A DNA stretch of 64,000 nucleotides from assembly GCA_016182085.1 (NCBI GenBank), contig JACOYB010000009.1, positions 1,393-65,392 of the forward strand, given 5' to 3'. Positions 11,569-64,000 of this stretch are shown piece by piece; within the stretch, counting starts at the first letter, position 1; every line of letters begins with the position of its first letter. Source of the DNA: Candidatus Magasanikiibacteriota bacterium (GTDB lineage: Bacteria; Patescibacteriota; Patescibacteriia; Magasanikbacterales; GWA2-37-8). The notes beneath the pieces were generated by a model. That model was not told where the DNA came from, did no database searches, and saw only the letters and a list, made by a program, of their open reading frames with translations. The translations under genes and the position numbers were made by a program.

Positions 11569-11588
11569 TAATACTGGCAATCTCTAGA

Positions 11589-13052
11589 TTAACGAGATGC
11601 CAGTAAAGGAGTTTTGCCGGTCCTCGTGGCCGGCTTCGTGTTTGTAAGAAGAAAAGTAAATAGGATAATCCCCATTACGTGAAATAAAGCTGGAGAAGTT
11701 AGGTTGATTATAAGCAGCGCAATTAGTGTTACGAGTAAACCTCGTTGTTTATATATAAGCTTTAAGCAGTACGCAATAAGCGCCAACCAAACAAGCAAAC
11801 CAATAATTCCCACCTCGGCTATAATTTCCAAATAGCCCCAATCAAAATGGGGGGTAGTAATATTCTGTTTAAATACCGGACTATATACCGTAACGGTATC
11901 ACCCAAACCATTTCCCAAAATTGGTTTGTCTTGAATTTTTTCCATAATTTTTGGCAGCAGCAGCATACGGCTCAGCGAACTATCTTCGGTTTGCGGCATG
12001 GCAATGCTTTGCAAGCGTATTCCCAAATATTCCAAGCCCAAACTATCACCTTTAGTGGCGGCAACATGAGTAAAAATAAAAATTGATATAAAAATTACAA
12101 AGGCGCTGCCGGAATATAAAAACCATTTTTTCCAGTTTTTAAAAGAAAAAAGAAGTAAAATACCGGCAAACAAAGACATGAAATAAATACGGGTAAGATT
12201 GATCGTAAGAATGGCCAGCAGCATGCCCGCGGAGATTTGCGACAAACCGAGGCTGATATTTTTTTTGGTTGTAATAAACAGTTGTTTGGAAAATAGATAT
12301 AAAAATATCGGTATCATGAGCAGCTGTTCATTAAGTACGATTCGGAAGAAACCCGTGTTAAAGTTTGTAATTTTTCCGCCGGCTACATCTCTAAACCAGT
12401 GATAATAACTGTCCTGCAAGATAAATATGCCGGAAGAAAATCCGACAAGTGTAATATAGGTAAAAATAAAGTTGCCTATAATCGCGGCAAAAACCATATT
12501 AACACTAGTGCTGCGGAAAGTTACCGAGGAGAGTAGTTGTTTAAGTGGAAAATAGTATAAAAAGAATAGGTAGGGAATACAATCGGCTAGAATTAGTTTT
12601 GGATTGTTGCCTAGCAGGTAGCCTTGTACAGCCGATACTGCTACGGCGGTATAAAGTGCGGCCAAAATTAAAAGTATTGGCTTATTTTCAATAAATAACT
12701 TCCATTTTTTGTCGCGAACGGCATGAAAAACAAAAATACCGGCGGCAAATACCAGAAGTATGGTGCGCAGTGATATATTTTTTATCTCTAAAAAGTTCCC
12801 CGCTCCGCCTAAAATCATTTCCGCGGCAATAATTATCCAGCCGCGCATGTCTTTTTTGATTAAAAAATAAACGGCCGCGGCGAGTATGGCTCCGGAAATA
12901 ATCCAATTTATGATGCTGGCCTCATAGAGCGGCGTGCCCGGGCTGAAGAAATAAGAAAAAATGCGGATTGTGAAATATATCATCAGTCCGCCGAGAATTT
13001 GTTTGGTAGATAGTTCTAAGTTTTGCAGCTTTATTTTTAGTTTTGAAAACAT
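11589..13052 (-). CDS. O-antigen ligase/polymerase-family membrane protein
   Basis: More than 10 TM segments. 'HFDWGYLEIIAEVGIIGLLVWLALI' is an O-antigen ligase (Wzy_C)-like motif. Confidence 0.5.
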   Translation of the reverse strand: MFSKLKIKLQNLELSTKQILGGLMIYFTIRIFSYFFSPGTPLYEASIINWIISGAILAAAVYFLIKKDMRGWIIIAAEMILGGAGNFLEIKNISLRTILLVFAAGIFVFHAVRDKKWKLFIENKPILLILAALYTAVAVSAVQGYLLGNNPKLILADCIPYLFFLYYFPLKQLLSSVTFRSTSVNMVFAAIIGNFIFTYITLVGFSSGIFILQDSYYHWFRDVAGGKITNFNTGFFRIVLNEQLLMIPIFLYLFSKQLFITTKKNISLGLSQISAGMLLAILTINLTRIYFMSLFAGILLLFSFKNWKKWFLYSGSAFVIFISIFIFTHVAATKGDSLGLEYLGIRLQSIAMPQTEDSSLSRMLLLPKIMEKIQDKPILGNGLGDTVTVYSPVFKQNITTPHFDWGYLEIIAEVGIIGLLVWLALIAYCLKLIYKQRGLLVTLIALLIINLTSPALFHVMGIILFTFLLTNTKPATRTGKTPLLASR

Positions 13053-13112
13053 GCGAGCGTTATATATGCAAATTATAGCATTTTTTATTTAATAAGGAAA
13101 ACAAAAAACTTA

Positions 13113-14036
13113 TTAAAGCAGATGAACCTGGTCAAAGTTTTTATAGCCATTTGCAAAAACGCCAGCGCTCATGACAATTTTTCCTTCCAGTTGCAACTCT
13201 AAAACTTTTATAGCATGTTGTCCGCAGCCGATAAAGATATTTCTATGTTCTATAAGTACGGTGCCTGGTTCCAGGGTTCTTTCTGCCCTGGCAATTTTTA
13301 ATAATTTTAATCGTTTATCTGCCCACATGCACCAAATACCCGGCCAGGGAGTATAGGCTCGGTACAGGTTATAGATTTGGTCGGCAGTTTGGGAAAAGTC
13401 AATGCGGCCGTCATCTTTATGTATAAGTTTAGTAAATGTTGCTAAACTATGATCTTGTACTTGGGGGATAATCTCTCCTTCCATATATTCCGGCAGGGTA
13501 TTTAAGAGTAGCGTAGAGCCCGCGGCGGCCATTTTATGGCTTAACGTGGTAAAAGTGTCATCTGCACCTATCGTTACCCCCTCTTCAGACAAAATGGGGC
13601 CATGATCTACCTGTTCATCCATAAGCATTATCGTAACACCGGTTAGCGTTTCGCCATTTTTAATGGCTTCTTGAATAGGCGAGGCGCCGCGGTATTTGGG
13701 CAGCAATGATCCGTGTACATTGATTATGCCTTTGGAAAACGAATCAATGATGCTTTTAGGAATGATGAGTCCGTATTGGGCTACCACAGCTACAGATGAA
13801 TCGGTTAGTGAAGTAAGGGAAAAATTTTTTAAAGTCTCCGGTTGTTTTATAGTTAAATTATGCCGTAAAGCCAATTTTTTTACCGCTGACTGCTCCAAAA
13901 TTTGTTTGCGTCCGACTTTTCGGTCCGGCTGGGTAAAAACCATTTCCACGGAAAACTTGGGATCTTGCAAAAGTCCTTCCAAAATAACGGCCGCAAAATC
14001 TTGCGTGCCAAAGAAAACGATTTTAATCTTGGACAT
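13113..14036 (-). CDS. fmt: Methionyl-tRNA formyltransferase
   Basis: KIVFFGTQDFA…INVHGSLLPKYRGASPIQ…DHGPIL. Confidence 0.85.
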   Translation of the reverse strand: MSKIKIVFFGTQDFAAVILEGLLQDPKFSVEMVFTQPDRKVGRKQILEQSAVKKLALRHNLTIKQPETLKNFSLTSLTDSSVAVVAQYGLIIPKSIIDSFSKGIINVHGSLLPKYRGASPIQEAIKNGETLTGVTIMLMDEQVDHGPILSEEGVTIGADDTFTTLSHKMAAAGSTLLLNTLPEYMEGEIIPQVQDHSLATFTKLIHKDDGRIDFSQTADQIYNLYRAYTPWPGIWCMWADKRLKLLKIARAERTLEPGTVLIEHRNIFIGCGQHAIKVLELQLEGKIVMSAGVFANGYKNFDQVHLL

Positions 14037-19588: not shown

Positions 19589-19741
19589 AGAAAATAAGGG
19601 AAAATAACAGGATTTCTTAATACCTAATTATAACACACTTTGCTTTGGCGCTCAATCTCTTATTTTTAGCCAAAAAATTGACTTTTATATATAAATTTGT
19701 TTATATATTCGCACGGATTTTACCGTAGAAGGACGTGTGCC

Positions 19742-20449
19742 ATGTTTGTTTCCTCTCTCGTTACGTTCAATCTGGCGGGGTTGTGCGATCTTCCGTCAGA
19801 TCTGGGGCGGTCGCTATCTGCTGGTGAGATCAGTCATATCCTTGAAGTGTGTGGAGCGCTTTGGCTCCATGATGGTGATGCTCATAGGCCGCATGCGGAA
19901 CTTACTTCAGGTAAGTGCAGCGATGGGTTTGTGAATGTGCAACAAGCACTTTGCCACACTCCAATCGCCGAGATCTTGGCTGACCAGCTGATGCTGAAAG
20001 TGAGTGATGTCTACCATGGCCCAGTAGATTGGGTTGCGGGTTCGGATCATGCCGCAGCCACCCTTTCGTATAGCGTTGCCGTCAGAAACCGTGCCAGGCA
20101 CGATTTTACGGAGAAGGGGGATGGCAAATCTCAGAAGTGGAGCCGGTTCAAGATCGGTCCGGGCGAAGCGGTTCTGCAGGTGGAGGAGTTGATCACCACA
20201 CTCTTGACGATGGAGGCCGTGCGAAAAGGTATTCGCGCCGCTCATGAGTGGAATATTACCTTTACTCCGGTTGTTGGAGTTTTGGTCAATCGATCTTCGG
20301 CACAGGAGTTTGAAGGAAGTCCGATCGTATCTCTGGCTACATACGATATCAAGACTTGGGAACCATCTGATTGTCCGTTGTGCGCGGCTGGTTCCAAGCG
20401 TGTGCGACCCAAGGCCAACTGGGTTGAGCTTACTGGTCGAGCTACCTGA
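19742..20449 (+). CDS. Orotate phosphoribosyltransferase-like type I PRTase (divergent PRPP loop), G+C-rich
   Basis: 'AELTSGKCSDGF', 'PVDWVAGSDHAAATLSYSVAV' and 'VLQVEELITTLLTMEA' align with PyrE regions. The Gly of the canonical TAG(T/S) is replaced. RBS 'agaagga'. G+C far above the genome background. Confidence 0.5.
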   Translation: MFVSSLVTFNLAGLCDLPSDLGRSLSAGEISHILEVCGALWLHDGDAHRPHAELTSGKCSDGFVNVQQALCHTPIAEILADQLMLKVSDVYHGPVDWVAGSDHAAATLSYSVAVRNRARHDFTEKGDGKSQKWSRFKIGPGEAVLQVEELITTLLTMEAVRKGIRAAHEWNITFTPVVGVLVNRSSAQEFEGSPIVSLATYDIKTWEPSDCPLCAAGSKRVRPKANWVELTGRAT

Positions 20450-20492
20450 CGAGCTGGCAACTAGAGTCTGTTTAGAATCGGAGGGTTTAATG

Positions 20493-20559
20493 AAACTGCC
20501 CGTCGATTCGTTAGATTTTTATAATAGAAATTTAGCGAATCGGGCAGTTTTTGTTTTTT
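20493..20559 (+). terminator. Intrinsic terminator after the OPRT-like gene
   Basis: Stem 'aaactgcccgtcgattcg' … 'cgaatcgggcagttt' followed by 'ttgtttttt'. Confidence 0.55.
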
Positions 20560-20651
20560 AGAAATTTTGACATACCTTTTTACTTGCTATAGACTTCTTT
20601 CACAAGAAGGGCTTACAACAAGCCCATCACAATTTGGGGAGGTATTTTGTC

Positions 20652-21350
20652 ATGATGCAATCGCGTTTGACTGCCAATCATGTTGTTCTAGCCGCCGACA
20701 CCCTTACACTCGAGCAGTGTTTGCGGCTCGGTCCGCTCATCGGCAATCGCGTCTACGCCGTCAAGATCCATGTCCTGTGGGATCGGCATGGGCCATCGGT
20801 CGTCAATCAGCTCAAGGAAGCTGGTTTCCGTCGGGTTTGGGTGGACCTAAAGCTGCACGATACCTCGGACACTGTCGCATTGCGCGCGAAAGAGGTGGCT
20901 GAGGCTGGAGGTGATATTGTGAGTGTGCACATATCTGGCGGCAAGAGGATGATGCAGGCTGCGAAGAAGTCAGGGATTAAGGTCTTCGGCATCACCATCC
21001 TTACCTCGCTTGAAGAGCGTGAGGTGATGGAGGTCTACCGTAGCGACGTGCTGCAGAACGTGATGTCGCTTGCGCTCAAGGCAAAGCAAGCGGGGATCGA
21101 TGGGGTCGTCTGTTCACCGCGAGAAGTTGTGGTGCTTGCTAGCTGGAACGAACTCGCTGGTCTCAAGTTCGTCACTCCCGGTGTTCGTTCGCCGGGAAAG
21201 GAAGTTCATGATCAGAAGCGTGTGGGTACGCCAGCCAAGGCCAGGGAGGACGGTTCCAACCTTCTTGTCATGGGTCGTCAGCTCACGGAGGCGGAAGATC
21301 CGGTTGTTGAGCTGGATCATGTCGAGGGGGAACTCAGCCTGCCCTCGTGA
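20652..21350 (+). CDS. pyrF: Orotidine 5'-phosphate decarboxylase
   Basis: 'DLKLHD' (DxKxxD), 'GGKRMMQAA', 'ILTS', 'GIDGVVCSPRE', 'VTPGVR', 'DQKRVGTP' and 'LVMGRQLTEAEDP' align with PyrF. RBS 'gggagg' 8 nt upstream of the ATGATG. G+C-rich. Confidence 0.8.
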   Translation: MMQSRLTANHVVLAADTLTLEQCLRLGPLIGNRVYAVKIHVLWDRHGPSVVNQLKEAGFRRVWVDLKLHDTSDTVALRAKEVAEAGGDIVSVHISGGKRMMQAAKKSGIKVFGITILTSLEEREVMEVYRSDVLQNVMSLALKAKQAGIDGVVCSPREVVVLASWNELAGLKFVTPGVRSPGKEVHDQKRVGTPAKAREDGSNLLVMGRQLTEAEDPVVELDHVEGELSLPS

Positions 21351-31189: not shown

Positions 31190-33337
31190 ATGGCAAAGCC
31201 AGTCACGCATAATTTACATAAACTTTTTAATCCAAGCTCTGTTGCTATTTTAGGAGCTTCGCGCGATGAAAAAAAGATCGGCAATATAGTGCTTAGAAAT
31301 ATCGTTAATTCCGGTTTTAGAGGCAAGATTTTTCCGGTCAATCCAAATTCCAAAGATATAAACGGATTAACATGTTATGGCAGTTACGCGAAATTGCCGG
31401 AGATTCCGGATTTGGCAATTTTGTCACTGCCTTCGGATTTAGCTTTAGAACTTTTAGAACCGATTGCCAAAAAAGGCACAAAAAATATTATCATATTCAG
31501 CGCCGGTTTTAAGGAAATCGGCCCTGAAGGAGAAAAAAAAGAAGAGGAATTGCGCGCGGCCGCGCAGAAATTTGGTTTAAATATATTGGGTCCGAATTGT
31601 CTTGGCTTTGCCAGCACTTTAAGCAGTTTAAATGCCACATTTAGCAGAGTCGGCGGAGCCAGAGGCAATTTAAGATTTATATCTCAATCCGGAGCGCTGG
31701 CTTCCGGAATTTTTGATTGGGCCAGACAAAATACTATTGGTTTTAGCGAGTTTATTACGCTGGGCAATAAAGCGGTGTTAAATGAAAATGATATTTTGCA
31801 GTATTGGTTAACTAAACCCAAAACCAAAATAACTGATCCGGGTTTATCCAGATGCCAGCCTATAGGGTTATATTTGGAATCAATAGATGAAGGACAGAAA
31901 TTTTTAGAATTAGCCTCTAAAGTTTCGTTTACCGATCCGATTTTTATCTTAAAACCCGGTAAATCAAAACATGCGCAGCAAGCCATTCGCTCCCACACCG
32001 GATCAATGGCCGGGGATGATGCGGTGCAAGATGCGGCATTTGCGCAAGCCGGCATAATTCGGTGTGAGGGTGTGGAAGATATGTTTGATTTGGCAAAAGT
32101 TTTCTCTTGGGAGAATGCCCCGAAAGGGCCGAGGGTAGCCATAGTATCCAATGCCGGCGGACCGGCGGTTATTAGTACTGATGCTTTAGAAAAAGAAGGT
32201 TTAGAACTTGCGGCGTTAAGTAAAAATACAAAAGTAAAATTAGAAAAGAATTTGCCGCGCGCCGCAAATGTGGCAAACCCGGTTGATGTTTTGGGCGATG
32301 CTCTGGCAGGCAGATATCATGAAGCCATAGAAGATGTTTTGGTGGAAAAAGGCGTAGATGCGCTTGTGGTAATTTTAACGCCGCAAATAATGACCGAAAT
32401 AGAAACCACCGCGGATCTGATTGGCAAATTATCCGCAAAATACGGCAAACCCGTAGTGTGTTCGTTTATGGGAGCCGATCTTATTCATACTGCTGAAGAA
32501 ATTTTAAATAAATATAAGATCCCATCGTTTAGATTCCCGGAACGGGCTATAAAGGCCTTGGCAAAAATGTGGCAATGGCGATCGGTAGCTGAAAAACAAA
32601 AAGCGCAAGTAAAACAGAAAAAACAAAAGCTGGTTTCTAAACATAGCACAAAAAAAATCAACGCCATAATCCAATCTTTGGAAAAAAATAACAAAGTACT
32701 CTCGGCAGCTCAAGCCGACGAGGTATTAAATACGTTTGGCATTAAAACGCCAAAGTCCGCAACTATTAATAATTTAGAAGAAGCGCGTAATTTTGCGCAA
32801 AAAAATAAATGGCCGGCAGTGCTTAAAATTTCTTCGCCATTTTTGATGCATAAAACCGAAGCGGGAGCCGTAATTAAAAATATAAATAATAATGAACAAT
32901 TAGAAAACGCATGGACAAAAATTACGGCCATAGTAAAAAAATTACCGAATAAATCAAACTGTTTTATACAAATTCAACAGCAGATCGGCGCGGGAGTGGA
33001 AGTTATTGCGGGCATTAAACATGACAGCAGTTTTGGCAACGTGCTTATGTTTGGCGCGGGTGGAATACTCGCCGAACTAATAGGGGACAGTAATTTAAAA
33101 ATGCTGCCAATTGATAGAAAGCGCGCCTTAGAACTTATATTTTCATCAAAAGTATATAAACTACTCGCCGGATTTAGAAATCAAAAATCGTACGCTGTAG
33201 ATAAATTAGCAGATTTGCTTATGCATTTGGGAAATCTGGCGCAAACAACAGATCGGTTTAGTGAAATTACGATCAATCCGATTATAGTTACCGAAACCGA
33301 TGCCTGGGCCGTAGATCCAAGAATCATAGTCAGATAA
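31190..33337 (+). CDS. ADP-forming acetyl-CoA synthetase (NDP-forming acyl-CoA synthetase, fused alpha/beta)
   Basis: CoA-binding 'VAILGASRDEKKIGN', succinyl-CoA-synthetase-like ligase domains and a C-terminal ATP-grasp; 715 aa. Confidence 0.7.
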   Translation: MAKPVTHNLHKLFNPSSVAILGASRDEKKIGNIVLRNIVNSGFRGKIFPVNPNSKDINGLTCYGSYAKLPEIPDLAILSLPSDLALELLEPIAKKGTKNIIIFSAGFKEIGPEGEKKEEELRAAAQKFGLNILGPNCLGFASTLSSLNATFSRVGGARGNLRFISQSGALASGIFDWARQNTIGFSEFITLGNKAVLNENDILQYWLTKPKTKITDPGLSRCQPIGLYLESIDEGQKFLELASKVSFTDPIFILKPGKSKHAQQAIRSHTGSMAGDDAVQDAAFAQAGIIRCEGVEDMFDLAKVFSWENAPKGPRVAIVSNAGGPAVISTDALEKEGLELAALSKNTKVKLEKNLPRAANVANPVDVLGDALAGRYHEAIEDVLVEKGVDALVVILTPQIMTEIETTADLIGKLSAKYGKPVVCSFMGADLIHTAEEILNKYKIPSFRFPERAIKALAKMWQWRSVAEKQKAQVKQKKQKLVSKHSTKKINAIIQSLEKNNKVLSAAQADEVLNTFGIKTPKSATINNLEEARNFAQKNKWPAVLKISSPFLMHKTEAGAVIKNINNNEQLENAWTKITAIVKKLPNKSNCFIQIQQQIGAGVEVIAGIKHDSSFGNVLMFGAGGILAELIGDSNLKMLPIDRKRALELIFSSKVYKLLAGFRNQKSYAVDKLADLLMHLGNLAQTTDRFSEITINPIIVTETDAWAVDPRIIVR

Positions 33338-33346
33338 TATTAAGGT

Positions 33347-35050
33347 ATGCAACCATTTAGCGTAAAAATTGGCGGAGAAGCGGGGTTTGGCATCATGTCC
33401 TCTGGTTTGATTTTTTCTAAAGTTGCGACTCGTTCCGGCTACCATGTATTTAATTATATGGAGTACCCCTCCATCATTAGAGGCGGGCATAATGTAATGC
33501 AGATAATGGTATCGGAAAAATCGATTGCGGCTTCATACAAGCATACGGATTTTTTAATTGCTTTAAATCAGCAAACCATAGACCTGCATGTTTCAGAGCT
33601 TTCACTAAACGCTGGTTTGATGTATGACTCTGCAACGTGCGTGCTGCCAAAACTCCCCAAAGGAGTAACTGTTTTTGATATTCCGATTGATAAAATAGTC
33701 AGAGAAATTGGCGGGTCGTTTATTTTTAGAAATACTATAGCGATCGGCGCAGCCGCGGCGCTGGTTGGAGGCGATATAAAAATTTTGAAAGATTTGCTAG
33801 CGGAAGGGTTTGCCGGTAAATCAAAAGAACTCATAGAGAAAAATTTTCGCGTTGCCGAAGCCGGATATAACTACGCGCGCCAGCAGTATGCTAATAAAAC
33901 CAAGCCAATACTTGCGATAAAAAAGAAAAAACAAAAACAAATGGTAATAGCCGGCAATGACGCGATCGCTCTGGGTTCAATTGCTGCAGGCATGCAATTT
34001 GCCGCTATTTACCCTATGACGCCGATTAGCAATATTTTACATACTTTGGCGCCACTACAGGAAAAATATAATTTTATTTATAAGCAACCCGAGGATGAAA
34101 TCTCGGCCATTAATATGGCTATTGGCGCTTCGTTTGCGGGAGCTAGGGCCATGACTGCGTCTGCGGGCGGGGGATTTTGTTTGATGAGTGAGGGCTATGG
34201 CTTGGCGGCTATGACCGAAACCCCGCTGGTTATTATAGAAGGTATGCGCGGCGGTCCGGCTACGGGTTTGCCAACGTGGACCGAACAGGGTGATTTACGA
34301 TTTGTTTTGCATGCGCATCAAGGCGAGTTTCCAAGAATTGTTTTGGCAGCCGGTGATGCGAACGAAGCATTTCATCTTACCATGCAAGCGTTTAATTTGG
34401 CAGATAAATATCAAACCCCGGTAATAATTATTGTTGACAAACAAGTGTGCGAAAGTCATTTTAGCGTTAGTCCGTTTGAGTATAATAAATATATAGCAGA
34501 CAGAGGAAAATTTACGGTTAAAAAACAAGCAAGCTATAAACGCTATGCTCTCAGTAAAGATGGCATATCATTGCGCAGCATTCCAGGTGTAGGCAATCAT
34601 ATTGTCGTCAATTCCGATGAACATAATGAATTGGGGTATTCCAATGAAGAGGCTAAAAATAGATTGGATCAGATGAGTAAGCGTATGCAAAAATTGGCTA
34701 CCTGTGCCAAAGAAGATCTAGCTAAGCCGGAGTTGATCGGGCCAAAAGATGCGGATGTAACAATAGTATCCTGGGGCAGCAATAAAGGCGCAATCTTAGA
34801 GGCCATGAATGATTTTGATAATGTAAATTTTTTACATCTGACTTGGATCAGTCCGTTTCCAACCGAGGCCGTGAAAAATATTTTGCATAAAGCAAATAGA
34901 ATTTTAAATATAGAATGTAATTCTACGGCACAGATGGCCGGACTTATTAAAGAAAAAACCGGCATTGGCATAAAAGATAATTTATTAAAATACGATGGCC
35001 GGCCGTTTTTCCCGGAAGAAATCATCGCGAAAATTAAAAAAATGTTGTAA
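33347..35050 (+). CDS. 2-oxoacid:ferredoxin oxidoreductase, fused gamma-alpha subunit
   Basis: N-terminal gamma domain 'KIGGEAGFGIMSSG' followed by an alpha/transketolase-like domain. Confidence 0.7.
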   Translation: MQPFSVKIGGEAGFGIMSSGLIFSKVATRSGYHVFNYMEYPSIIRGGHNVMQIMVSEKSIAASYKHTDFLIALNQQTIDLHVSELSLNAGLMYDSATCVLPKLPKGVTVFDIPIDKIVREIGGSFIFRNTIAIGAAAALVGGDIKILKDLLAEGFAGKSKELIEKNFRVAEAGYNYARQQYANKTKPILAIKKKKQKQMVIAGNDAIALGSIAAGMQFAAIYPMTPISNILHTLAPLQEKYNFIYKQPEDEISAINMAIGASFAGARAMTASAGGGFCLMSEGYGLAAMTETPLVIIEGMRGGPATGLPTWTEQGDLRFVLHAHQGEFPRIVLAAGDANEAFHLTMQAFNLADKYQTPVIIIVDKQVCESHFSVSPFEYNKYIADRGKFTVKKQASYKRYALSKDGISLRSIPGVGNHIVVNSDEHNELGYSNEEAKNRLDQMSKRMQKLATCAKEDLAKPELIGPKDADVTIVSWGSNKGAILEAMNDFDNVNFLHLTWISPFPTEAVKNILHKANRILNIECNSTAQMAGLIKEKTGIGIKDNLLKYDGRPFFPEEIIAKIKKML

Positions 35051-35056
35051 ATCGCT

Positions 35057-35914
35057 ATGACTACTGTACAAAATTTAAAAACTCCTAATGCGTGCAATTG
35101 GTGTCCGGGATGCGGCAATTTTGGCATTTGGACAGCAGTTAAGGAAGCCGCGGCTAAGGAACGCTGGAATAATACCAACAGCGTGATTGTGGCTGGCATC
35201 GGTTGCCATGGTCATATTAATAATTTCATTGAACTGAGCAGTTTTGAGGGGCTGCACGGCCGGGCTATACCGGTGGCTTCGGCTATAAAAATGGTGAACC
35301 ACAGGCTAAATGTAATGGTTTTTACCGGGGACGGAGATTGTTTGGCTGAGGGCGGTAATCATTTCATGCATGCGGCTCGCCGTAATCAAAATTTGACGGT
35401 TATTTTGCACGATAATGCTATTTATGGCCTTACTACCGGACAAACTTCGCCGCGTTCTCCGCACGGCTTTAAATCAAAATCAACTCCTATGGGGAATTTG
35501 GATGAACCGATTAACCCGCTTACGCTGGCCATATCTGCCGGAGCCACGTTTGTCGCCAGAGCATATTCAGGTGATATTCCTCGTCTCACAGATTTAATTA
35601 TTCAAGCAAATAACCATAACGGTTTTTCGGTGTTGCAGATTTTACAGCCATGCGTAACGTTTAATAAAATCTATTCACATACCTTTTTCCAGGAAAATAC
35701 GTATCATTTGCCCGCAAGTTATAATCCGCAAGATAAAACCGCGGCCTTTGCCAAAACCTTGGAGTGGGGAGAAAAACAAATTCCGGTCGGCGTAATTTAT
35801 AAAGAAGATAGGCCGTCGTACGAAGATCAAGTGCCGCAAATTAAAGCCGCGCCTCTTATTTCGGTAGCCGCGAAAAAAAGAAATATCAACGAAACATTGG
35901 AAACATTTTTATGA
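35057..35914 (+). CDS. 2-oxoacid:ferredoxin oxidoreductase beta (TPP-binding) subunit
   Basis: 'CPGCGNFGIW', 'GIGCHG' and 'GDGD'. Confidence 0.8.
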   Translation: MTTVQNLKTPNACNWCPGCGNFGIWTAVKEAAAKERWNNTNSVIVAGIGCHGHINNFIELSSFEGLHGRAIPVASAIKMVNHRLNVMVFTGDGDCLAEGGNHFMHAARRNQNLTVILHDNAIYGLTTGQTSPRSPHGFKSKSTPMGNLDEPINPLTLAISAGATFVARAYSGDIPRLTDLIIQANNHNGFSVLQILQPCVTFNKIYSHTFFQENTYHLPASYNPQDKTAAFAKTLEWGEKQIPVGVIYKEDRPSYEDQVPQIKAAPLISVAAKKRNINETLETFL

Positions 35915-36378
35915 AGAAGATTCTATTAATATACGCTACGCATTCCGGCAGCACCTTTGTAGCCGCGCAAATCATGAAGGAAATTTTGTCAGCCGATTTT
36001 GAAGTGGTAATGCAAAATGCCTTGGAGTCAAAACCCGCAGATATAAAAAATTATGATACGGTTATTTTAGGTTCCCCAAGCTGGTTTAGCAGAGGAGAAG
36101 AGGGAATGCCATCCGAAACCATGCTGAAATTAATGGATGTTTGGGGCAAACAGAATTTATCCAACAAGCATTTCGCGGTATATGGCTGCGGTGACGATAG
36201 TTATATGACTTTTTGCGGCGCGGTAGATCATCTGGAAAATTTTGTAAAAAACGTAAAAGGCGAATTTATTCTACCATCACTTCGCCTTAACGGCTTCTTT
36301 TTTGACGTGGATAAAAACGTAGAACAGGTAAAAAAATGGGCCGCTGATCTAAAAGTTAAAGCCAGCGCGATCTGGTAA
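35911..36378 (+). CDS. Flavodoxin
   Basis: 'KILLIYATHSGSTFVAAQ' FMN loop; overlaps the previous stop codon. Confidence 0.7.
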   Translation: MKKILLIYATHSGSTFVAAQIMKEILSADFEVVMQNALESKPADIKNYDTVILGSPSWFSRGEEGMPSETMLKLMDVWGKQNLSNKHFAVYGCGDDSYMTFCGAVDHLENFVKNVKGEFILPSLRLNGFFFDVDKNVEQVKKWAADLKVKASAIW

Positions 36379-36557
36379 AGATTTTAAGAAAGTTGTGGTA
36401 ATTGCGGGTAGAAATAGGGGAGAGGCCCTTTTCAATTTCGCAGTATTCTAAAAAAGTGGGGATGTGGAAGGTGACGGGTTGATTGGATTTGTGCATAAGC
36501 TTGTATTAACCGTATTTTTATTATATCATAAAATATTATACGACGTATCTTAATTTT

Positions 36558-36707
36558 ATGAGTAGTTTCTTAAAAACCCGTGCGGCCACATTATTTTGGG
36601 GATTTGCGGTAACGTATTTTTTTACCGGCCATATTGTTACTTCCCTTAAGATTTTTGCCGTTATGGCAATTGGCAACACGCTTATCATGTGGAAGTTAGT
36701 AAAATAA
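36558..36707 (+). CDS. Small hydrophobic protein (49 aa)
   Basis: MSSFLKTRAATLFWGFAVTYFFTGHIVTSLKIFAVMAIGNTLIMWKLVK. The track only lists the antisense frame. Confidence 0.25.
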   Translation: MSSFLKTRAATLFWGFAVTYFFTGHIVTSLKIFAVMAIGNTLIMWKLVK

Positions 36708-36781
36708 GGAGGTCTATTTGACATAATTATCTTATATGTTAATCTTTGTATTTAAGACAAAAAAACACCAGGGAGGCATCC

Positions 36782-37159
36782 ATGAATTGGCGCGAAGTTG
36801 CAAACCGTGATGATGTGGTGGGCGGGGAGATTGAGACCCAAGAAGGGGAGTTCGTCTTCCGCGGCCCGATCGCATCTGTAGAAGTTCGTGATGACGGCCT
36901 GGTCTATTTCCAGGTTGCCTGGGCAGCCCAGAAACCGATCAGCATGGAAGGCGGATGGGTGAAGCATGAGACCACGAGCTTCGTGGCGAGTGCAGATGTT
37001 TCGGTGGAAGATATCGGTGAAGGCAAACTTCACTTCCGGACTTCGTTTGCGGAGTCTGGTACTATCTTCCTGAAGGGGAGTGGTAACAAACTTGATCCAC
37101 GCAGGGTTCGTGGCCTGCGGGTTTGCAAGAGTCACAAAAGACATGCCAAGGCTTCTTGA
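36782..37159 (+). CDS. Hypothetical protein (G+C-rich island 2, ORF A)
   Basis: RBS 'cagggagg' 6 nt upstream; downstream hairpin 'acacctttaattaggtgt' plus T-run near 37258-37290. Confidence 0.4.
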   Translation: MNWREVANRDDVVGGEIETQEGEFVFRGPIASVEVRDDGLVYFQVAWAAQKPISMEGGWVKHETTSFVASADVSVEDIGEGKLHFRTSFAESGTIFLKGSGNKLDPRRVRGLRVCKSHKRHAKAS

Positions 37160-37428
37160 GGATGAGTTTGGGCAGCCATTGTAGGGGGAAATCAGTAAGG
37201 CCGTCCAAATTGCTTTGATTATAAAAGTTGTAGTTAAAGCAATGACGGTCTTAATAAAACACACCTTTAATTAGGTGTATTTTATTATTTAAAATTGCAA
37301 AACCACCGCCCCGAACTCATCTTTGCAGATAAAATCGGAAACGGTGGTTGAAAGAATCCTCGACCGGCATCACTTGTTCCATAGATCAAATGTCCGAATA
37401 GCTAAGATTCTAGTTGGTTATTGCGTAC

Positions 37429-37740
37429 TTACTCAACGGCCTGGATAGCGTCCAGCGAGCCGAGAAGTCTGGCGATGAAGAGATCTTCGGCAGCTCCGCT
37501 GAAGTGCTGAGAAAGTTCGATCGTGATGGTGCGATCGGCGTTTCCCCGCCAGTCTCCGTAGCTGCCCACAGAGGTGAGCAATTCGTCGTCCTCAATTGAG
37601 GCCGGCGCCAGGTAGTTCTCGCTCATCCGAAGTAGTTCTCTGACAGCGCCGGTTGCGCCATGTTTGAACTGCAGTCTCAACTTACGACTGCCCTTGCGCG
37701 CCTTCCTCAGTTCGGCAAACATCTGCTCTCTCGTATTCAT
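37429..37740 (-). CDS. Hypothetical protein (island 2, ORF B)
   Basis: RBS 'ggag' before the ATG at 37740; convergent terminator hairpin 'aaccaccg…cggtggtt' near 37300-37360. Confidence 0.4.
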   Translation of the reverse strand: MNTREQMFAELRKARKGSRKLRLQFKHGATGAVRELLRMSENYLAPASIEDDELLTSVGSYGDWRGNADRTITIELSQHFSGAAEDLFIARLLGSLDAIQAVE

Positions 37741-37890
37741 ACACATCTCCGAGGTGGAATGGAATTTGTTTGTGCAGTGAACAAGGCAGGATAGTACCAT
37801 ACTTTTTGCCCCAGGTCAATTAAAACCAGCAATCATGATTGACAATAATAATTAATGTGTTAGTCTTATTTACCAGGAGAAGGAGCTATT

Positions 37891-38244
37891 ATGAAATGGA
37901 AAAAGGTTGATCGGGTAGATAAAGGGATTACCATAACCGGAAATCATGGTGTTCCGCCCACAAGATGGTGGAACCACTGGTGGCTTGCGCTCTTCGGCTG
38001 GAAGACAATTGTCACGTTTAGTCTTCCTGATGAGGTGGCGACAAGCGGGTACCGTGTTGGCTTCACGACCAAAGACGGTAAGTCATGGTGTAAGCGCACA
38101 ATCGCGCACGATAAGTTCTTTAGCATGAAAATTGGGTACGAGGATTGCAAGTTCTGGGTCAAAGCGGCCCGCAATCCCGAACAGCCCGATACCGATGGCG
38201 CAGTGATTTTGCCCGAGCTCATCAGCAGAGGGCCTCTTCACTAA
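37891..38244 (+). CDS. Hypothetical protein (island 2, ORF C), Trp-rich N-terminus
   Basis: RBS 'aggagaaggag'; terminator 38316-38346. Confidence 0.4.
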   Translation: MKWKKVDRVDKGITITGNHGVPPTRWWNHWWLALFGWKTIVTFSLPDEVATSGYRVGFTTKDGKSWCKRTIAHDKFFSMKIGYEDCKFWVKAARNPEQPDTDGAVILPELISRGPLH

Positions 38245-38315
38245 GATGCAGCCATCTTTTCCAAGACGTACCCACCGCAAGGCGTTTTGGAAATAAAAAA
38301 ACTTGCGGTTTGAGC

Positions 38316-38346
38316 AAAAACAACCTTCATGAGAAGGTTGTTTTTG
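38316..38346 (+). terminator. Intrinsic terminator
   Basis: 'aaaaacaaccttc atga gaaggttgttttt'. Confidence 0.6.
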
Positions 38347-38464
38347 CTAGCTCTTTAATTATTGTTAAAATTCCTAGTAGGGAGTTTTTTGATTTTAAGT
38401 CTGTATGTATTTTTACAAAAAATTATGCTATTCTAAGTGCGGTAGAATATAACATCATTTATAT

Positions 38465-38818
38465 ATGGGTAAGAAATCATTTGAAACAGGAGGTTTGTTG
38501 CCACAGAAACAGACAAGCGAAGAGAATAATGAGAATTTGGAACTTGAGAAATACGCTACCGGAGAAATAGCAAATAGTGAGATTGCCGCCAAGGAATTTG
38601 CCAAGTTTGGTTTTAAAGTGGGTGATAGGGTAGAGGTTGCAGGAAGTTTAATGGAGCCGTATGAGGGCACTATTGAATATTTTGAAGTTGAAGAGGTTGG
38701 GGCGAGAAGCGTATCTTATCGTGCCTATGTAAAGGTAAAAGGTGCAGAGGATCTATATTATTTTACATTACAAGCAATAAAACATCCTTCTTCGGCAATA
38801 AGGGTAACTAAAATTTAA
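38465..38818 (+). CDS. Hypothetical protein
   Basis: 117-aa ORF. Confidence 0.3.
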   Translation: MGKKSFETGGLLPQKQTSEENNENLELEKYATGEIANSEIAAKEFAKFGFKVGDRVEVAGSLMEPYEGTIEYFEVEEVGARSVSYRAYVKVKGAEDLYYFTLQAIKHPSSAIRVTKI

Positions 38819-38852
38819 TAGGTTATACACGGTTGCGAAATACCACCAGTGC

Positions 38853-39797
38853 TTATTTTTCAAATAACGGATGAAAATCATGGTGTGTTTTTTCTGCAAA
38901 TTTATCGGAAGCATGCACATAACGAGTGGTTGTGTCTAGAGATTCATGTCCCAAAAGTATCTGAATCGCTGCCGGATTAGCCCCGTTTTCAGCCAAATAA
39001 GTGGCAAAACCATGTCTTAGCGTATGCGCGCTAATCGGAAGGTTTATATCTAGTAATTCTCGATATTTTTTTATTTTAAATTGTAAATAGTTAGTTGAAA
39101 TTTTTTTATTTTTTTCATTATTATTTCGGCCGCGGTAGGGGACAAATAGCATTTCAGAAGTGCTGTTGCGTTTTGCCATGTAATTTTTTAAATGAGTAAC
39201 AGCTCTAGGGGTTAAATAGGCAAAGCGCTGTTTTTTACCTTTCCCAAGTATGTAAACACGTCCGGTTTGATCAATCTGGTTAACTTTTAGCGACAATAAT
39301 TCTGATATACGCATGCCGGTGGCAAATAATGTTTCTAACATAGCGCGATTGCGCAAAGCCACACGCTCGTCATCCTCATATTTCATCGGAGCTTCAATGA
39401 TTTTTATCAACTCTCCAAATTCAGGAATTTGCGCGTGTTTTTTTATATTTTTTATTAGTTTTACGGCGCCGGATGAAACAGGCGGATCATGATCCATATC
39501 TTCCATAAATTTTAAGTACGATCGGAGGGCTGACAGCATTCGATTTATGGAATAGCTGCTTAATTTTTTATTTGTTTTTTCCCCGGAAACAGATGTTTTG
39601 CGATCAGATGACGCCAAGTAGGCTTTATAGCGTAAAATATCAGTTTTATTTATTCTGTTAAAGGGTGTTTTTATATCTTCGTTTAAAAAAGTTTCAAAAG
39701 TATTTAAATCGCGTTCATAGTTATACGCAGTTTCTTCCGAGAAGTTATTTGCTTTTAAGTTTAAAATAAAATCATCTAAATAGGGAAGTTGGTTCAT
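38853..39797 (-). CDS. Tyrosine site-specific recombinase (XerC/XerD/phage-integrase family)
   Basis: 'HTLRHGFATYLAENGANPAAIQILLGHESLDTTTRYVH' carries the R..H…R..Y catalytic signature; N-terminal core-binding domain. Confidence 0.8.
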   Translation of the reverse strand: MNQLPYLDDFILNLKANNFSEETAYNYERDLNTFETFLNEDIKTPFNRINKTDILRYKAYLASSDRKTSVSGEKTNKKLSSYSINRMLSALRSYLKFMEDMDHDPPVSSGAVKLIKNIKKHAQIPEFGELIKIIEAPMKYEDDERVALRNRAMLETLFATGMRISELLSLKVNQIDQTGRVYILGKGKKQRFAYLTPRAVTHLKNYMAKRNSTSEMLFVPYRGRNNNEKNKKISTNYLQFKIKKYRELLDINLPISAHTLRHGFATYLAENGANPAAIQILLGHESLDTTTRYVHASDKFAEKTHHDFHPLFEK

Positions 39798-39903
39798 ATT
39801 TTGCTTAAATTAGGCATATTGAATTGAGTGTAAGAGATATTATACTCAATTATATACCTCGGTGCAGCTAGGGTCAATAATGCTTATCCACACCTTTCTC
39901 CCT

Positions 39904-40937: not shown

Positions 40938-42179
40938 TTAAAGTTTTTTGAATCCGGTATATTTACGCAAAGCCCTTGGTATGAGTACGCTGCCATCTTT
41001 TTGTTGGTGATTTTCTATAAGCGCCAGAGGGAATCTGCTGGACACAATGGCTGTGCCATTTAGGGTGTGCGCAAATTCATTTGAACCATCTTCTTTTTTG
41101 TACTTTATATTTAACCGGCGCGCTTGATAATCCGTGCAATTGCTGGTGCTGGTAATCTCTCCATAATCATTTTTCATGGTCATCCAAGCCTCTATATCAT
41201 ATTTGCGATAAGCAGGGCCGCCCAAATCGCCACTAGCAACGTCTATTACTCTATAAGGTAACTCTAGTCCATCACAAATCTTTTGTTCTAATTTAAGCAG
41301 CTCTTGGTGCATTTTTTCACTATCTTCTGGTTTGCAATAAACAAACATTTCTAATTTAGTAAACTGGTGCACGCGGTATAATCCTTTGCTTGTTTTGCCA
41401 TAAGCGCCAGCTTCGGTGCGGAAACAATGTGATACAGCCGCGTATTTTTTTGGTCCTTTGCTTAAATCAAGCACCTCGTCGGCATGATAGCCTCCCATGG
41501 TAATTTCGGCGGTGCCGATAAGGCTAAGATCGGTATTTTCTACGGAATATACCTGGGTTTCGGTGCCGCGTGGATTAAAACCAATACCGGTTAGAATATC
41601 ATTTTTGGCTAAATCGGGGGTTTCTATTAGAGAAAAACCCTGTTTTTCCAAGATGTCCATACCGTACTGGATAAGCGCTTGATTGAGACGCACCAATTTA
41701 TTTTTAGCAAAGTAGAATTTTGAAGCGGCTACTTTGGCTCCTCTTTCAAAATCTATTAAATCTAAATTAAGCATCAGTTCGTCATGGTCTTTTGGTTGAA
41801 AAGAAAACTTGGGCGGATTGCCTTCTTTGGCCACTACTGTATAATCCTCTTCCCCGCCTATTGGACTTTCCGGATGAGTAAGATTCGGGACTCTTAACAA
41901 GAGTTCGCGATATTTAGTTTCTGTTTCTTCGGCATTTTTTTCTAAAACGGTAATATCGTCCCCCATTTTGCGGAGTCTGGCGATATCTTCTTCGCTAGGC
42001 TTGCCCTTTGATTGGCTTTTTCTTTGCGCTCGCAATGCTTCTACTTCCTGTTGGGCTGCGCGTCTTTGTTCATCTAGTTTAAGCAGCTCATCTACATCCA
42101 AATTAACATGCCGATTTTTGCAGTTCTCTTTTATCAGTTCTTTGTTTTCACGGATGAATTTTATGTCTAGCATATACAA
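40938..42179 (-). CDS. serS: Seryl-tRNA synthetase
   Basis: N-terminal coiled-coil arm and class II motifs. Confidence 0.85.
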   Translation of the reverse strand: MYMLDIKFIRENKELIKENCKNRHVNLDVDELLKLDEQRRAAQQEVEALRAQRKSQSKGKPSEEDIARLRKMGDDITVLEKNAEETETKYRELLLRVPNLTHPESPIGGEEDYTVVAKEGNPPKFSFQPKDHDELMLNLDLIDFERGAKVAASKFYFAKNKLVRLNQALIQYGMDILEKQGFSLIETPDLAKNDILTGIGFNPRGTETQVYSVENTDLSLIGTAEITMGGYHADEVLDLSKGPKKYAAVSHCFRTEAGAYGKTSKGLYRVHQFTKLEMFVYCKPEDSEKMHQELLKLEQKICDGLELPYRVIDVASGDLGGPAYRKYDIEAWMTMKNDYGEITSTSNCTDYQARRLNIKYKKEDGSNEFAHTLNGTAIVSSRFPLALIENHQQKDGSVLIPRALRKYTGFKKL

Positions 42180-62039: not shown

Positions 62040-62396
62040 ATGACCGACTACCACACGGATGATGATCCCGAACTTTTTGGTCTGGAGATCGCAGGCCTTT
62101 TGGCCTGCTTCGCCGATACCGGAACCCTTCCTTCGCTAGAAGACGAGGGGGCAGAGATCACGATCAGCGAGTTTTCCGACGCTGATCTGTTCAACTGGGA
62201 GGTCGAACACGCGGTCGACACTGCCGTTGTCGTGCCGGAGCCCGCTGGGCTGAAGGCAGCAACTGCGGAACCGACCAGCGTGGATGATGGTTGGGAGATG
62301 GAAAACCCGGGTGACACCGAGGAGAATACCCAGGTTGATCGCCCGCGTCACATGATCATTACGGCAGAAGGGCCCCGTCTGGTCCACCACGAGTAA
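62040..62396 (+). CDS. Highly acidic hypothetical protein (about 29 D/E vs 4 K/R in 118 aa), G+C-rich
   Basis: MTDYHTDDDPELFGLE…; strong RBS and promoter; followed by hairpins at 62423-62485 and 62509-62543. Confidence 0.4.
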   Translation: MTDYHTDDDPELFGLEIAGLLACFADTGTLPSLEDEGAEITISEFSDADLFNWEVEHAVDTAVVVPEPAGLKAATAEPTSVDDGWEMENPGDTEENTQVDRPRHMIITAEGPRLVHHE

Positions 62397-62508
62397 TTGG
62401 GTGTGCCGGCGCGAAGCCTCTGTTCGCCGCCGCACTACCGCTTTCAAGATAAAAAATATTTGTCTTGTAAAGCGGTGGCGGCGAACTTCACAAAGAACAG
62501 ATATAACA

Positions 62509-62543
62509 AAAACCCTCCGACGTAACGTCGGAGGGTTTTTGTT
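62509..62543. terminator. Intrinsic terminator (A-tract/stem/T-tract, probably bidirectional)
   Basis: 'aaaaaccctccgacg taa cgtcggagggtttttgtt'. Confidence 0.65.
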
Positions 62544-62802
62544 ATATTGACCATTTACTTAAAAATATGGTACGAATTATTTAGGAGGGAATAACATGAA
62601 CTTTGCCGAGGGATTGATTGGAACGGCCCTGGAAATCTTCCTGAACTGGATGGCGCTCATGTACCGTATCCGGGAGCTCGTCCGGATTGACCTCTTCCCC
62701 TTGTCCTCCTAGTTAGTACCTTGTGCCGGGCTTCACGCCTAGCACGTCGTCCTAGAGAGGGTAACAACCAGCCGGCGTCACACACTGTTGTGACGCCGCA
62801 AA

Positions 62803-62840
62803 ACAAAAACAGCTTTCAACTTAAAGCTGTTTTTGTTTTC
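62803..62840 (+). terminator. Intrinsic terminator
   Basis: 'acaaaaacagcttt caactt aaagctgtttttgtttt'; preceded by a second hairpin 'ggcgtcaca…tgtgacgcc'. Confidence 0.6.
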
Positions 62841-62894
62841 AACAATTGACCCATTTTATATAAGTATGCTAGTTTACATACAGGAGGTAGTAGT

Positions 62895-63155
62895 ATGAAG
62901 AAGCACGCGACTTTCTTTGAGAACCTGGTGGATTGGATTGCGGAGACGCGGCGCACGGTGCAGCTAAACGAGGTGTTGGAAGAACTTGCTTACTGGGTGG
63001 GACAGTTCGTTATTGCGGTGAGCAGAGAGCTTACCCCCGAAGGTTTGCAGAAGTTCTTCAGCGGTTTGAGCGGCGGGTATATCAATACGATGGACCTAAA
63101 CATCGACCTGGATGGAATGCATGCCGATGAACTTCTCTGCAAGAAAAGCAGGTAG
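62895..63155 (+). CDS. Hypothetical protein (island 3)
   Basis: RBS 'acaggagg'; 86 aa. Confidence 0.35.
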   Translation: MKKHATFFENLVDWIAETRRTVQLNEVLEELAYWVGQFVIAVSRELTPEGLQKFFSGLSGGYINTMDLNIDLDGMHADELLCKKSR

Positions 63156-63266
63156 GTCACCCCTACTCCGCAAGGTCTTCGCCTCGCCCGAAAATTCGGA
63201 GCGAGGCAATGCATTTTTATAGGAGAAATGAATTAAGTTTAATTTTTTAAATATTACTGACACCCC

Positions 63267-63295
63267 TTGACAAAAGGGGTGTTTTGGTGTATACT
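63267..63295 (+). promoter_or_regulatory. Near-consensus sigma70 promoter TTGACA-17-TATACT, with a palindrome overlapping the -35
   Basis: 'caccccTTGACAaaaggggtg' ('cccctt'/'aagggg' arms), then 'ttttggtgTATACT'. Confidence 0.55.
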
Positions 63296-63421
63296 GCTGG
63301 GTTGCTCTTTTAATGACCGATGGTACCTGTCGAGGGAGAAAAATACGTTAAATTAGCATATTTTTCCCCCTCGGCACCAAATTTTCGCCGAGATAACCAG
63401 TTTCGCGAGAGGAAAACCGCC

Positions 63422-63790
63422 ATGAACACCCTGTCCAAGATCGTCACCATCCTGACCCTGGTCGCTCTGATCCTGGCCATGGCCGTCAACCCGGCCTACG
63501 CCGACCGTTCGGTGGTCCGCATCCGCAAGAACGGCCCGCTCACGCAGAAGCACCGCAACGCGATCAGCGAGATCGAGCACATCATGCGCCGGTCGGGCGA
63601 CAGCCAGAAGCGGCCGACGAAGTTCTCATACTCCTGCAACCAGGGGAACGAGAAGATTCGGCAGATCGTCGCCACCTTCCCCGCGGACGAGCAGTTCATC
63701 CTGTCGGACGAGTGGGACGGCGAGTGTTTCTTCTACATCCCGCCGACCCGGAAGGTCAACAAGGCGCCGGTGATGGTCGCCAAGAAGTAG
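63422..63790 (+). CDS. Small secreted protein (signal peptide MNTLSKIVTILTLVALILAMAVNPAYA), very G+C-rich
   Basis: RBS 'gagaggaaaa'; a leader of about 120 nt with a 15-bp stem ('cgagggagaaaaata' … 'tatttttccccctcg'); terminator 63838-63870. Confidence 0.45.
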   Translation: MNTLSKIVTILTLVALILAMAVNPAYADRSVVRIRKNGPLTQKHRNAISEIEHIMRRSGDSQKRPTKFSYSCNQGNEKIRQIVATFPADEQFILSDEWDGECFFYIPPTRKVNKAPVMVAKK

Positions 63791-63837
63791 CAACACCCTG
63801 GCCAAGGCCGCGCAAGCGACCAAGGCCGAGACAGCCC

Positions 63838-63870
63838 GAAGCCCGCACATCAGCGGGCTTCTTTATTTTT
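63838..63870 (+). terminator. Intrinsic terminator
   Basis: 'gaagcccgc acatca gcgggcttc tttattttt'. Confidence 0.65.
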
Positions 63871-64000
63871 AAAAAGAAATATTAAATAATTTTTTAGCGT
63901 TTTCTGTAGTCGCAGCTTCAACTTCGGCAAATTCTATCTGTTTCAACTGCGCGATTTTTTTAATAGTTTCCCGTATCATCGGCGGATCGCATCTTTGCCC

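Follow-up and report, generated by a model that had tools for sequence, protein, structure and literature searches.

Putative Xer/dif module, remnants of a second one, and a G+C-rich gene island at the predicted replication terminus of a Magasanikbacteria genome

We analyzed a 64-kb stretch of DNA (64,000 nucleotides, hereafter the window) from a metagenome-assembled genome (MAG) of Candidatus Magasanikbacteria, in the candidate phyla radiation (CPR, Patescibacteria), with the proteins MBI2038236-43. Between its flavodoxin and FtsQ genes lie, in this order, the stub of a gene for a Xer-type tyrosine recombinase (xer2), one half of a recombination site (half dif2, or psi-dif2), a small gene (orf49), three G+C-rich open reading frames (ORFs A, B, and C), a further ORF (D), and an intact recombinase gene (xer1) beside its own putative site, dif1 (Table 1). 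An independent Logan contig, examined as a check on the assembly, carries the same arrangement. We read the locus as the replication terminus, where the cell's own Xer would act on dif1, an earlier xer2/dif2 module has probably been replaced, and an island of foreign genes may have grown on the dif side through capture by Xer recombination; to this reading as a whole we assign a probability of about 0.6.

The closest relative, L001 (GCA_964619625.1), is 91-95% identical to the window at the nucleotide level in the flanks, and all synonymous substitution rates (dS) and ratios of nonsynonymous to synonymous rates (dN/dS) given here compare the window with L001 orthologues. Other related loci are named by labels of the same kind. 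Orthologues of xer1 were surveyed with one genome per species in 24 Patescibacteria genomes (L003-L026), and counts of skew, site uniqueness, and short motifs cover the 64-kb window. There, the cumulative G-C skew peaks at 40.3-41.1 kb and the cumulative T-A skew has its minimum at 38877. Genes are on the plus strand on the left and on the minus strand on the right, and they converge at ~38.8 kb. The skew extremes, together with the convergence of gene strands, suggest that replication forks converge here, i.e., that the locus is the terminus. A replication origin, considered on account of a DnaA-like box, was ruled out by the skew polarity and by the convergent orientation of the genes.

Table 1. 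Features between the flavodoxin gene and FtsQ (positions in the window)
Feature	Position	Strand	Description
xer2 stub	36367..36496	-	Pseudogene; 5' remnant of ~44 codons, 130 nt
Half dif2 (psi-dif2)	36519..36546	-	ACGTCGTATAA-TATTTT-ATGATATAATA; left arm 11/11
dif2 right-arm-like 11-mer	36543..36553	+	ACGTATCTTAA, 9/11; back-to-back with psi-dif2
orf49	36558..36707	+	Small hydrophobic protein; host-like G+C of 0.38; weak DUF2061 match (E 0.011)
ORF A	36782..37159	+	125 aa; G+C 0.54; orphan
Terminator after A	37252..37287	+	Hairpin plus T-run
ORF B	37429..37740	-	103 aa; G+C 0.56; small uncharacterized family of ~100 aa
ORF C	37891..38244	+	117 aa; G+C 0.51; orphan; Trp-rich hydrophobic stretch
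Bidirectional terminator	38313..38348		Perfect 16-bp hairpin (16/16 complementary); homology to L001 stops here
ORF D	38465..38818	+	106-117 aa; G+C 0.39; orphan; inside window-specific segment 38347-39899
xer1	38853..39797	-	314-aa Xer-type tyrosine recombinase; PF00589 (2.3e-36), PF02899 (7.8e-12)
dif1	39823..39850	-	ATTGAGTATAA-TATCTC-TTACACTCAAT; 11-6-11, 28 bp; predicted Xer target
xer1 promoter	39849..39877	-	TTGACC-17-TATAAT, 11/12 match; -10 overlaps first two bases of dif1
DnaA-box-like TGTGGATAA	39884..39892	-	Shortly upstream of the xer1 -35 hexamer

The original prediction, made from the letters of the DNA, had recognized a XerC/D-type recombinase in xer1, and its two Pfam domains bear this out. 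The protein aligns over its full length to the XerC, XerD, and XerA models, has XerD as its best match among PDB structures, and by eye shows the R, K, HxxR, H, and Y motifs. It scores under the equivalog cut-offs of both TIGR02224 (192.6 vs. 335) and TIGR02225 (183.6 vs. 329.6); judged by these scores, it is a Xer-like protein that is neither an orthodox XerC nor an orthodox XerD. In ~24 species that do not have the island, orthologues at 60-90% amino acid identity adjoin FtsQ. They stand downstream of FtsQ in ~21 of the 24 loci and converge with it in three (L017, L021, and L025), and the neighborhood often holds SerS and Ham1/Nudix as well.

A single copy of dif1 sits between FtsQ and xer1 in 22 of the 24 loci, with the consensus ATTGAGTATAA-TAACTC-TTACACTCAAT, from which the window copy differs in its center. 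Mean column identity across the site is 91%, its flanks cannot be aligned, and three of the six center positions are variable (columns 13, 14, and 16). The two arms are nearly identical, 10 of 11 positions in the window being symmetric; dyad symmetry is 87.7%. L017 and L025 carry instead a variant, ACTGCGTATAA-TGCTCC-TTATGTGAAGT, which we take to be close to the dif of Escherichia coli. The site is single in the window and in each of the 5-13-kb loci of relatives, and it is separated from xer1 by 26 bp in the window, by 14-98 bp in loci where no ORF intervenes, and by 223-956 bp where an HNH ORF or other DNA does. A dif site has been defined by 11-bp arms with imperfect dyad symmetry about a 6-bp center, located at the terminus (PMC5357621); dif1, an imperfect 11-6-11 dyad at the terminus, therefore qualifies as one. 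Taken together, xer1 is best regarded as the cell's own conserved chromosomal Xer and dif1 as its predicted target. Xer1 would resolve chromosome dimers at the adjacent upstream site, and because the two 11-bp arms are nearly the same, a homo-oligomer of Xer1 would be expected to bind both and exchange strands across the center.

Three observations concern the site in other genomes. An ORF resembling HNH endonucleases, absent from the window, separates dif1 from xer1 in L003, L009, L010, L014, L016, L023, and L026; it reaches up to the start of xer1, and no duplication of the site accompanies it. The dif1 of L018 (5919-5946) is inverted relative to xer1, unlike that of all other loci, as told by its asymmetric center and arms. 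Lastly, viral contigs gave one match to the dif1 pattern; it falls within a 916-aa ORF, neither xer nor FtsQ is near it, and it was judged to be due to chance.

The promoter of xer1 is the best promoter match in the region, and its layout over dif1 is kept in relatives. The overlap of the -10 hexamer with dif1 and the conservation of this layout suggest that xer1 is autoregulated, with Xer1 bound at dif1 probably repressing its own gene. The TGTGGATAA box is found at -41 to -49 from dif1 in 15 of 25 loci (positions in L004-L025 included), against a background of 0.036 per 100 bp. In the window, the whole spacer from FtsQ to dif1, promoter and box included, has its homologue in species with xer1 beside FtsQ (hereafter xer1-type species). 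The box may couple xer expression to DnaA or to the cell cycle. Similar boxes were seen upstream of some xer2 genes (L041 and L046).

Our literature search found no description of Xer/dif in the CPR. Among systems described elsewhere, XerS and XerH, each of which works with one recombinase, have as a hallmark that the gene adjoins its site (PMC5357621). XerS/difSL of streptococci and lactococci and XerH/difH of Helicobacter and Campylobacter resemble the module here in that the gene stands beside its own site at the terminus and the imperfect-dyad arms suit one protein. They differ in having a 31-bp site with an 11-bp center, whereas the site in the window is of the classical 28-bp, 11-6-11 form; unlike XerS, the proteins of the window score best against XerC, XerD, and XerA models. 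Also unlike these systems, two alternative modules (xer1/dif1 and xer2/dif2) hold one FtsQ-proximal position in sister lineages. The classical pairs, XerC/XerD-dif of E. coli and CodV/RipX-dif of Bacillus subtilis, share with the window a 28-bp site where the skew switches, arms that end in ..ATAA and TTA.. at the center, the XerC/D domain layout, and XerD as the closest structure. The module of the window departs from them in its nearly identical arms, in the linkage of gene and site, in the one recombinase type seen per sister genome, and in equivalog scores under the cut-offs. The window lineage may rely on a single recombinase.

On the far side of the island, the xer2 stub matches residues 1-44 of the intact 321-aa xer2 of L001 at 89% amino acid identity, and nucleotide alignment with L001 places the ~835-bp deletion between GGTAAAGATT and GGTAAAGGTT. 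The intact gene of L001, directly after flavodoxin, is 30% identical to xer1. Orthologues of xer2 in metagenomes stand directly downstream of FtsQ in the order FtsQ, dif2, xer2, and in L028, L029, L032, and L039 xer2 converges on flavodoxin/POR of the opposite strand. The conserved site upstream of xer2, dif2, reads ACGTCGTATAA-CATAGA-TTAAGCGACGT and lies 7-89 bp from the gene in relatives with an empty site (L029-L038). The half dif2 of the window, 23 bp upstream of the xer2 start, occupies the position that the intact dif2 has in those relatives, and it is conserved in L001, L028, and L039. Its center and right arm are not dif-like and bear an extended -10 (TGATATAAT). Overall, two alternative xer-dif modules, recognized by their genes and sites, occupy one chromosomal position in different Magasanikbacteria. 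At 90% clustering, the xer1 cluster holds the window MAG and no other genome, and the xer2 cluster L001 alone, with the reservation that MAGs are incomplete.

The relatives with xer2 also show what the island looks like when filled and when empty. In L001, an intact dif2 (20/22) beside FtsQ and a half dif2 beside xer2 are on the same strand, and a 3.9-kb island lies exactly between them, with orf49, A, B, a 92-aa ORF, a paralogue of B, C, and ORFs of 58, 208, and 58 aa. The same pairing of dif2 and half dif2 encloses unrelated cargo in L028 (3.0 kb) and L039 (1.25 kb). The empty site in relatives for which the original prediction had suggested a search exists in L032, where FtsQ, dif2, xer2, and flavodoxin fit within ~1.2 kb. 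In a tree of xer2, the genes of the filled loci (L001, L028, and L039) form a clade that is sister to those of the empty L029-L032. Monophyly of the filled loci points to a single origin of the half-site architecture, followed by turnover of the cargo; the range of cargo G+C (0.27-0.56) points to several sources.

The window retains psi-dif2, orf49, A, B, and C from this arrangement. Homology to L001 ends at 38347, in the terminator after C, and resumes at 39900, 4 nt past the FtsQ stop; in the segment between (38347-39899), the window has D, xer1, and dif1, and L001 has three ORFs and dif2. Because xer2/dif2 is the module of every member of the L001/L028/L039 clade and of its sister group, and an xer2 stub persists in the window, parsimony favors acquisition of D-xer1-dif1 by the window lineage. 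This lineage would first have used xer2/dif2 at the same place, as L001 still appears to do, and would then have gained D-xer1-dif1 next to the 3' end of FtsQ. One crossover probably fell within the conserved FtsQ 3' end, and dif2 would have been lost in the exchange; most of xer2 may then have been removed by a microhomology deletion, which would leave the 130-nt stub and the half site. The donor is unsampled; the nearest sampled xer1 is 81% identical in nucleotides, compared with ~70% for the neighboring genes.

The island genes themselves agree in large part with the original description. ORFs A (+), B (-), and C (+) are present with G+C contents far from the roughly 40% of the host genome, which is the baseline for their composition; their G+C at third codon positions (GC3) is 0.56-0.67, compared with 0.34-0.43 in flanking genes, whose overall G+C is 0.35-0.44. 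Ribosome-binding sites (RBSs) precede all three (GGGAGG, GGAG, and GGAGAAGGAG for A, B, and C), hairpin terminators follow A and C as had been proposed, and the hairpin after C shows a compensatory change from C-G to T-A in L001. TTGACA-16-TA(A/G)TCT promoters of A and C were identified by eye, and a promoter-like site of B came from a motif scan. The open frame of B spans 37429-37800 on the minus strand; its start was placed at 37740 on the basis of the RBS position and the L001 orthologue. orf49 is 98% identical in L001 (dN/dS 0.06), A is 90% identical, and C is 91% identical.

Could these G+C-rich stretches be structured RNAs or chance ORFs and not protein genes? G+C-rich DNA does open long ORFs on both strands (e.g., 36752-37264 on the minus strand), A and C lack homologues, and single-sequence AlphaFold2 models are poor (mean predicted confidence, pLDDT, of 40 for A and 39 for C). 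Against this, all three frames are intact in both genomes, with dN/dS values of 0.32 (A), 0.18 (C), and, more weakly, 0.61 (B) at dS values of 0.13-0.20; changes in A and C are biased toward third codon positions, and substitutions in B are even across codon positions. The RBSs and promoters are correctly placed, B has a family of full-length homologues, and an Rfam scan gave nothing credible at gathering or E-value thresholds. A noncoding origin is thus very improbable. Furthermore, the dS of flavodoxin, orf49, FtsQ, and POR-beta between the window and L001 is 0.14-0.24, the same level as that of the cargo, which argues that A-C were not dropped in recently. Judged from these patterns, A, B, and C are real, compositionally foreign genes that are older than the split between L001 and the window and have not ameliorated. 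They would be expressed protein genes with host-type promoters, held under purifying selection and vertically inherited since that split.

Homology searches place none of them in a known family, and the original prediction had recognized no family for A-C either. ORFs A-D match no Pfam, PHROG, PADLOC, or NCBIfam family (the best PADLOC hit, E 0.026, is noise) and gave zero tblastn matches in a phage collection. In a word-indexed search of 5.8 billion clustered proteins, A matched only itself, and the same was true of C; B too matched only itself by word-indexed search. A full HMMER search found for B eight small full-length relatives of ~100 aa (E 6e-6 to 8e-4), unannotated and solitary in unrelated contexts; additional matches to multi-repeat adhesins were spurious, and a profile of the B family found nothing under E 0.5 among PDB sequences.

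The original prediction had gone further and suggested a possible small integrative element or moron cassette; on that model, xer1 would be its integrase and two copies of the 9-mer ATATTATAC its att sites. The recombinase does adjoin compositionally foreign genes, and the 9-mer does occur near both edges (36533-36541 and 39837-39845), each copy inside a Xer-type site, with four copies in the window against 0.8 expected, weak evidence if taken alone. Half dif2 and dif1 are, however, different site types, and the two copies are therefore not att duplicates of each other. The assignment of xer1 as an element integrase fails in addition because the gene is a core gene beside FtsQ in the island-free species of the survey and L001 carries A, B, and C without xer1. 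Cargo dS equals that of host genes, and no phage genes are present, so that such an element can hardly be the right explanation. What survives is foreign composition, an insertion locus, and edges at Xer-type sites; an element-borne recombinase and a recent insertion do not. Synteny of the ORFs in L001 and a chromosomal Xer, both named beforehand as signs against an integrated element, were found, yet the atypical composition persists and the boundaries coincide with repeats.

The island is probably a dif-linked accretion locus that resembles integrative mobile elements exploiting Xer (IMEX) and has no mobility genes. Like the gonococcal genetic island, Legionella LME-1, and the CTX and TLC phages, it has no integrase of its own: no recombinase lies between its flanking sites, and both recombinases that flank it are conserved chromosomal genes. 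As in IMEX, the cargo of L001, L028, and L039 is bounded by an intact dif on one side and a degenerate, dif-like direct repeat on the other. The interval from the half dif2 on the xer2 side to the functional dif on the FtsQ side has gathered unrelated small genes of mixed composition in the clade of L001, L028, L039, and the window, foreign DNA most likely being caught at dif by Xer recombination. A crippled flank is known to stabilize IMEX integration (PMC9765430, for LME-1; PMC5357621, for the gonococcal island), and the cargo may likewise have been kept owing to one crippled site, with ordinary insertions and deletions then remodeling its content. Unlike IMEX, the locus is devoid of genes of phage, plasmid, or secretion type and occurs nowhere in a second copy, its mosaic G+C content looks like the product of several accretion events along with decay, the arm that degenerated is the outer one, contrary to expectation, and in the window the intact partner site is replaced by another dif type (dif1).

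In Acinetobacter plasmids, pdif modules are small insulated gene units associated with Xer-type sites. Here, by contrast, the individual genes are not bracketed by inverted pdif pairs in alternation; the idea of one pdif module per gene was dropped, because arm-like 9/11 matches are about as frequent in the island as chance predicts (5.7 per 3.5 kb).

A role for Xer in building the island has to be weighed against an ordinary variable region near the terminus, shaped by illegitimate and homologous recombination, in which the half dif2 would be an operator or promoter of xer2. Microhomology deletions are evident both in the xer2 stub and in the loss of the B paralogue from one RBS to another: the paralogue, which lies within L001 11470-11843, is precisely missing at window 37835-37890, and the junction consists of two AGGAG RBSs. 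Insertions without dif repeats are also found 3' of xer1 in xer1-type species (an acetyl-CoA synthetase and ORFs of 248 and 297 aa), an allelic replacement tract covers SerS (see below), and the polarity of the half site is awkward for integration. What speaks for Xer is position. In three lineages the cargo lies exactly between the intact dif2 and xer2, where empty relatives have 16-90 bp, and extra dif2-type arms occur at cargo junctions (2997 and 4937 in L028; 36543 in the window). A variable region of this kind is therefore possible but, in our view, doubtful.

Several points weigh against our reading of the locus. The evidence spans 64 kb, and a second Xer gene or dif may lie elsewhere. 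In L052 (4957-7453), from more distant Patescibacteria, a dif2-like site, xer2, a ~180-aa ORF, and an xer1-like gene follow one another; this tandem may represent an ancestral two-recombinase arrangement, so that two-recombinase ancestry is possible for the window as well. The 81% identity of xer1 against ~70% for its neighbors is compatible with transfer and does not prove it. The 28-bp palindrome could be an operator or an RNA hairpin, and pair counts do not discriminate a protein-binding palindrome from a hairpin. Several insertions and deletions in the island are microhomology events and not site-specific ones. No phage, plasmid, or transfer genes were found in the island, A and C are without homologues outside L001, no cargo gene was found elsewhere, a repeat finder detected no long direct repeats flanking the island, and viral contigs contain no mimic of the dif2 pattern.

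The polarity of the half site is a further difficulty. Its degenerate arm is the outer, xer2-proximal one, and a single integration should leave the outer arms intact. This could be reconciled by the extra assumption of an ancestral additional half site adjoining dif2, and in L029, L030, and L032 dif2 is indeed followed by right-arm copies in inverted orientation. The present site would then be a hybrid scar, composed of a degenerate element arm, the center, and the chromosomal right arm. The right-arm-like 11-mer at 36543-36553, which scores 9/11 in the window and L001 (with 4 nt shared with the psi-dif2 arm) and 10/11 in its L028 equivalent, is possibly such a scar, although it is weak evidence taken singly; the support for this solution consists of these 9/11 and 10/11 arm matches and is no more than suggestive.

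The function of the cargo is a separate matter. A toxin-antitoxin or anti-phage defense module would be compatible with our explanation of the locus, and the small insulated genes, the organization of L001, and a gene pair next to its dif2 invite this thought. In L001, the B paralogue (11524-11832, 102 aa) sits between a shared promoter and C, forming with C a tight two-gene operon; in the window, the same promoter drives C alone. The L001-specific pair (12362-13142), of overlapping 58-aa and 208-aa ORFs, matches no family, and by eye the 208-aa protein has an HEPN-like R-x6-H motif (RIDRNKVH). On the other hand, PADLOC, Pfam, and PHROG give no match, homologues of B are solitary in unrelated contexts, and C persists in the window even though the B paralogue that preceded it was lost there. 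We regard such a module as quite unlikely, and no evidence for a prophage or a defense system supports the moron or defense cassette of the original prediction. In view of the two-gene operon of the B paralogue and C in L001, a small set of conflict or immunity type is our low-confidence guess for the cargo, and an unlikely one.

If read correctly, the locus provides, for a lineage of the CPR, a dif site and a Xer recombinase that are concrete and can be tested. The apparent displacement of one Xer/dif module by another at a single position bears on how essential site-specific systems turn over, and the dif-proximal interval looks like a storage place for foreign orphan genes in reduced genomes. 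For the annotation of CPR MAGs, "phage integrase" calls beside FtsQ are probably chromosomal Xer, and dif can serve to locate the terminus. A more general proposal, which we put forward tentatively and hold to be less likely than not, is that Magasanikbacteria resolve chromosome dimers by self-contained xer-dif cassettes that embed a promoter and come in two or more types without cross-compatibility, which share one FtsQ-proximal position at the terminus. Such cassettes could be exchanged horizontally within a species-level lineage; one such swap would be caught here, with xer1/dif1 in place, xer2 decaying, and dif2 gone, and the interval between dif and xer would be a trap for orphan genes that is fed by Xer.

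Changes in the neighborhood are not confined to the island. SerS (window 40938-42179) is 77-89% identical to L001 in nucleotides, against ~96% on both sides, and its dS is 1.13 compared with 0.13-0.24 for other genes; such divergence indicates allelic replacement of this tract by recombination in one lineage. On the other side, D-Ala-D-Ala ligase (Ddl) converges directly on xer1 in most xer1-type species (L004, L023, L024, and L026 were compared). In the window, an ADP-forming acetyl-CoA synthetase, POR alpha and beta, and flavodoxin (31190-36378) stand between Ddl and the xer locus, and in L024 the synthetase alone does. This comparison suggests that insertions also enter 3' of xer, in this case a metabolic operon. 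Two more G+C-rich islands (0.51-0.59) were observed in the window, one (19697-21350) with PyrE-like and PyrF-like enzymes recognized by eye, and the other (62040-64000) with three ORFs that have no Pfam match and are dissimilar to A-D.

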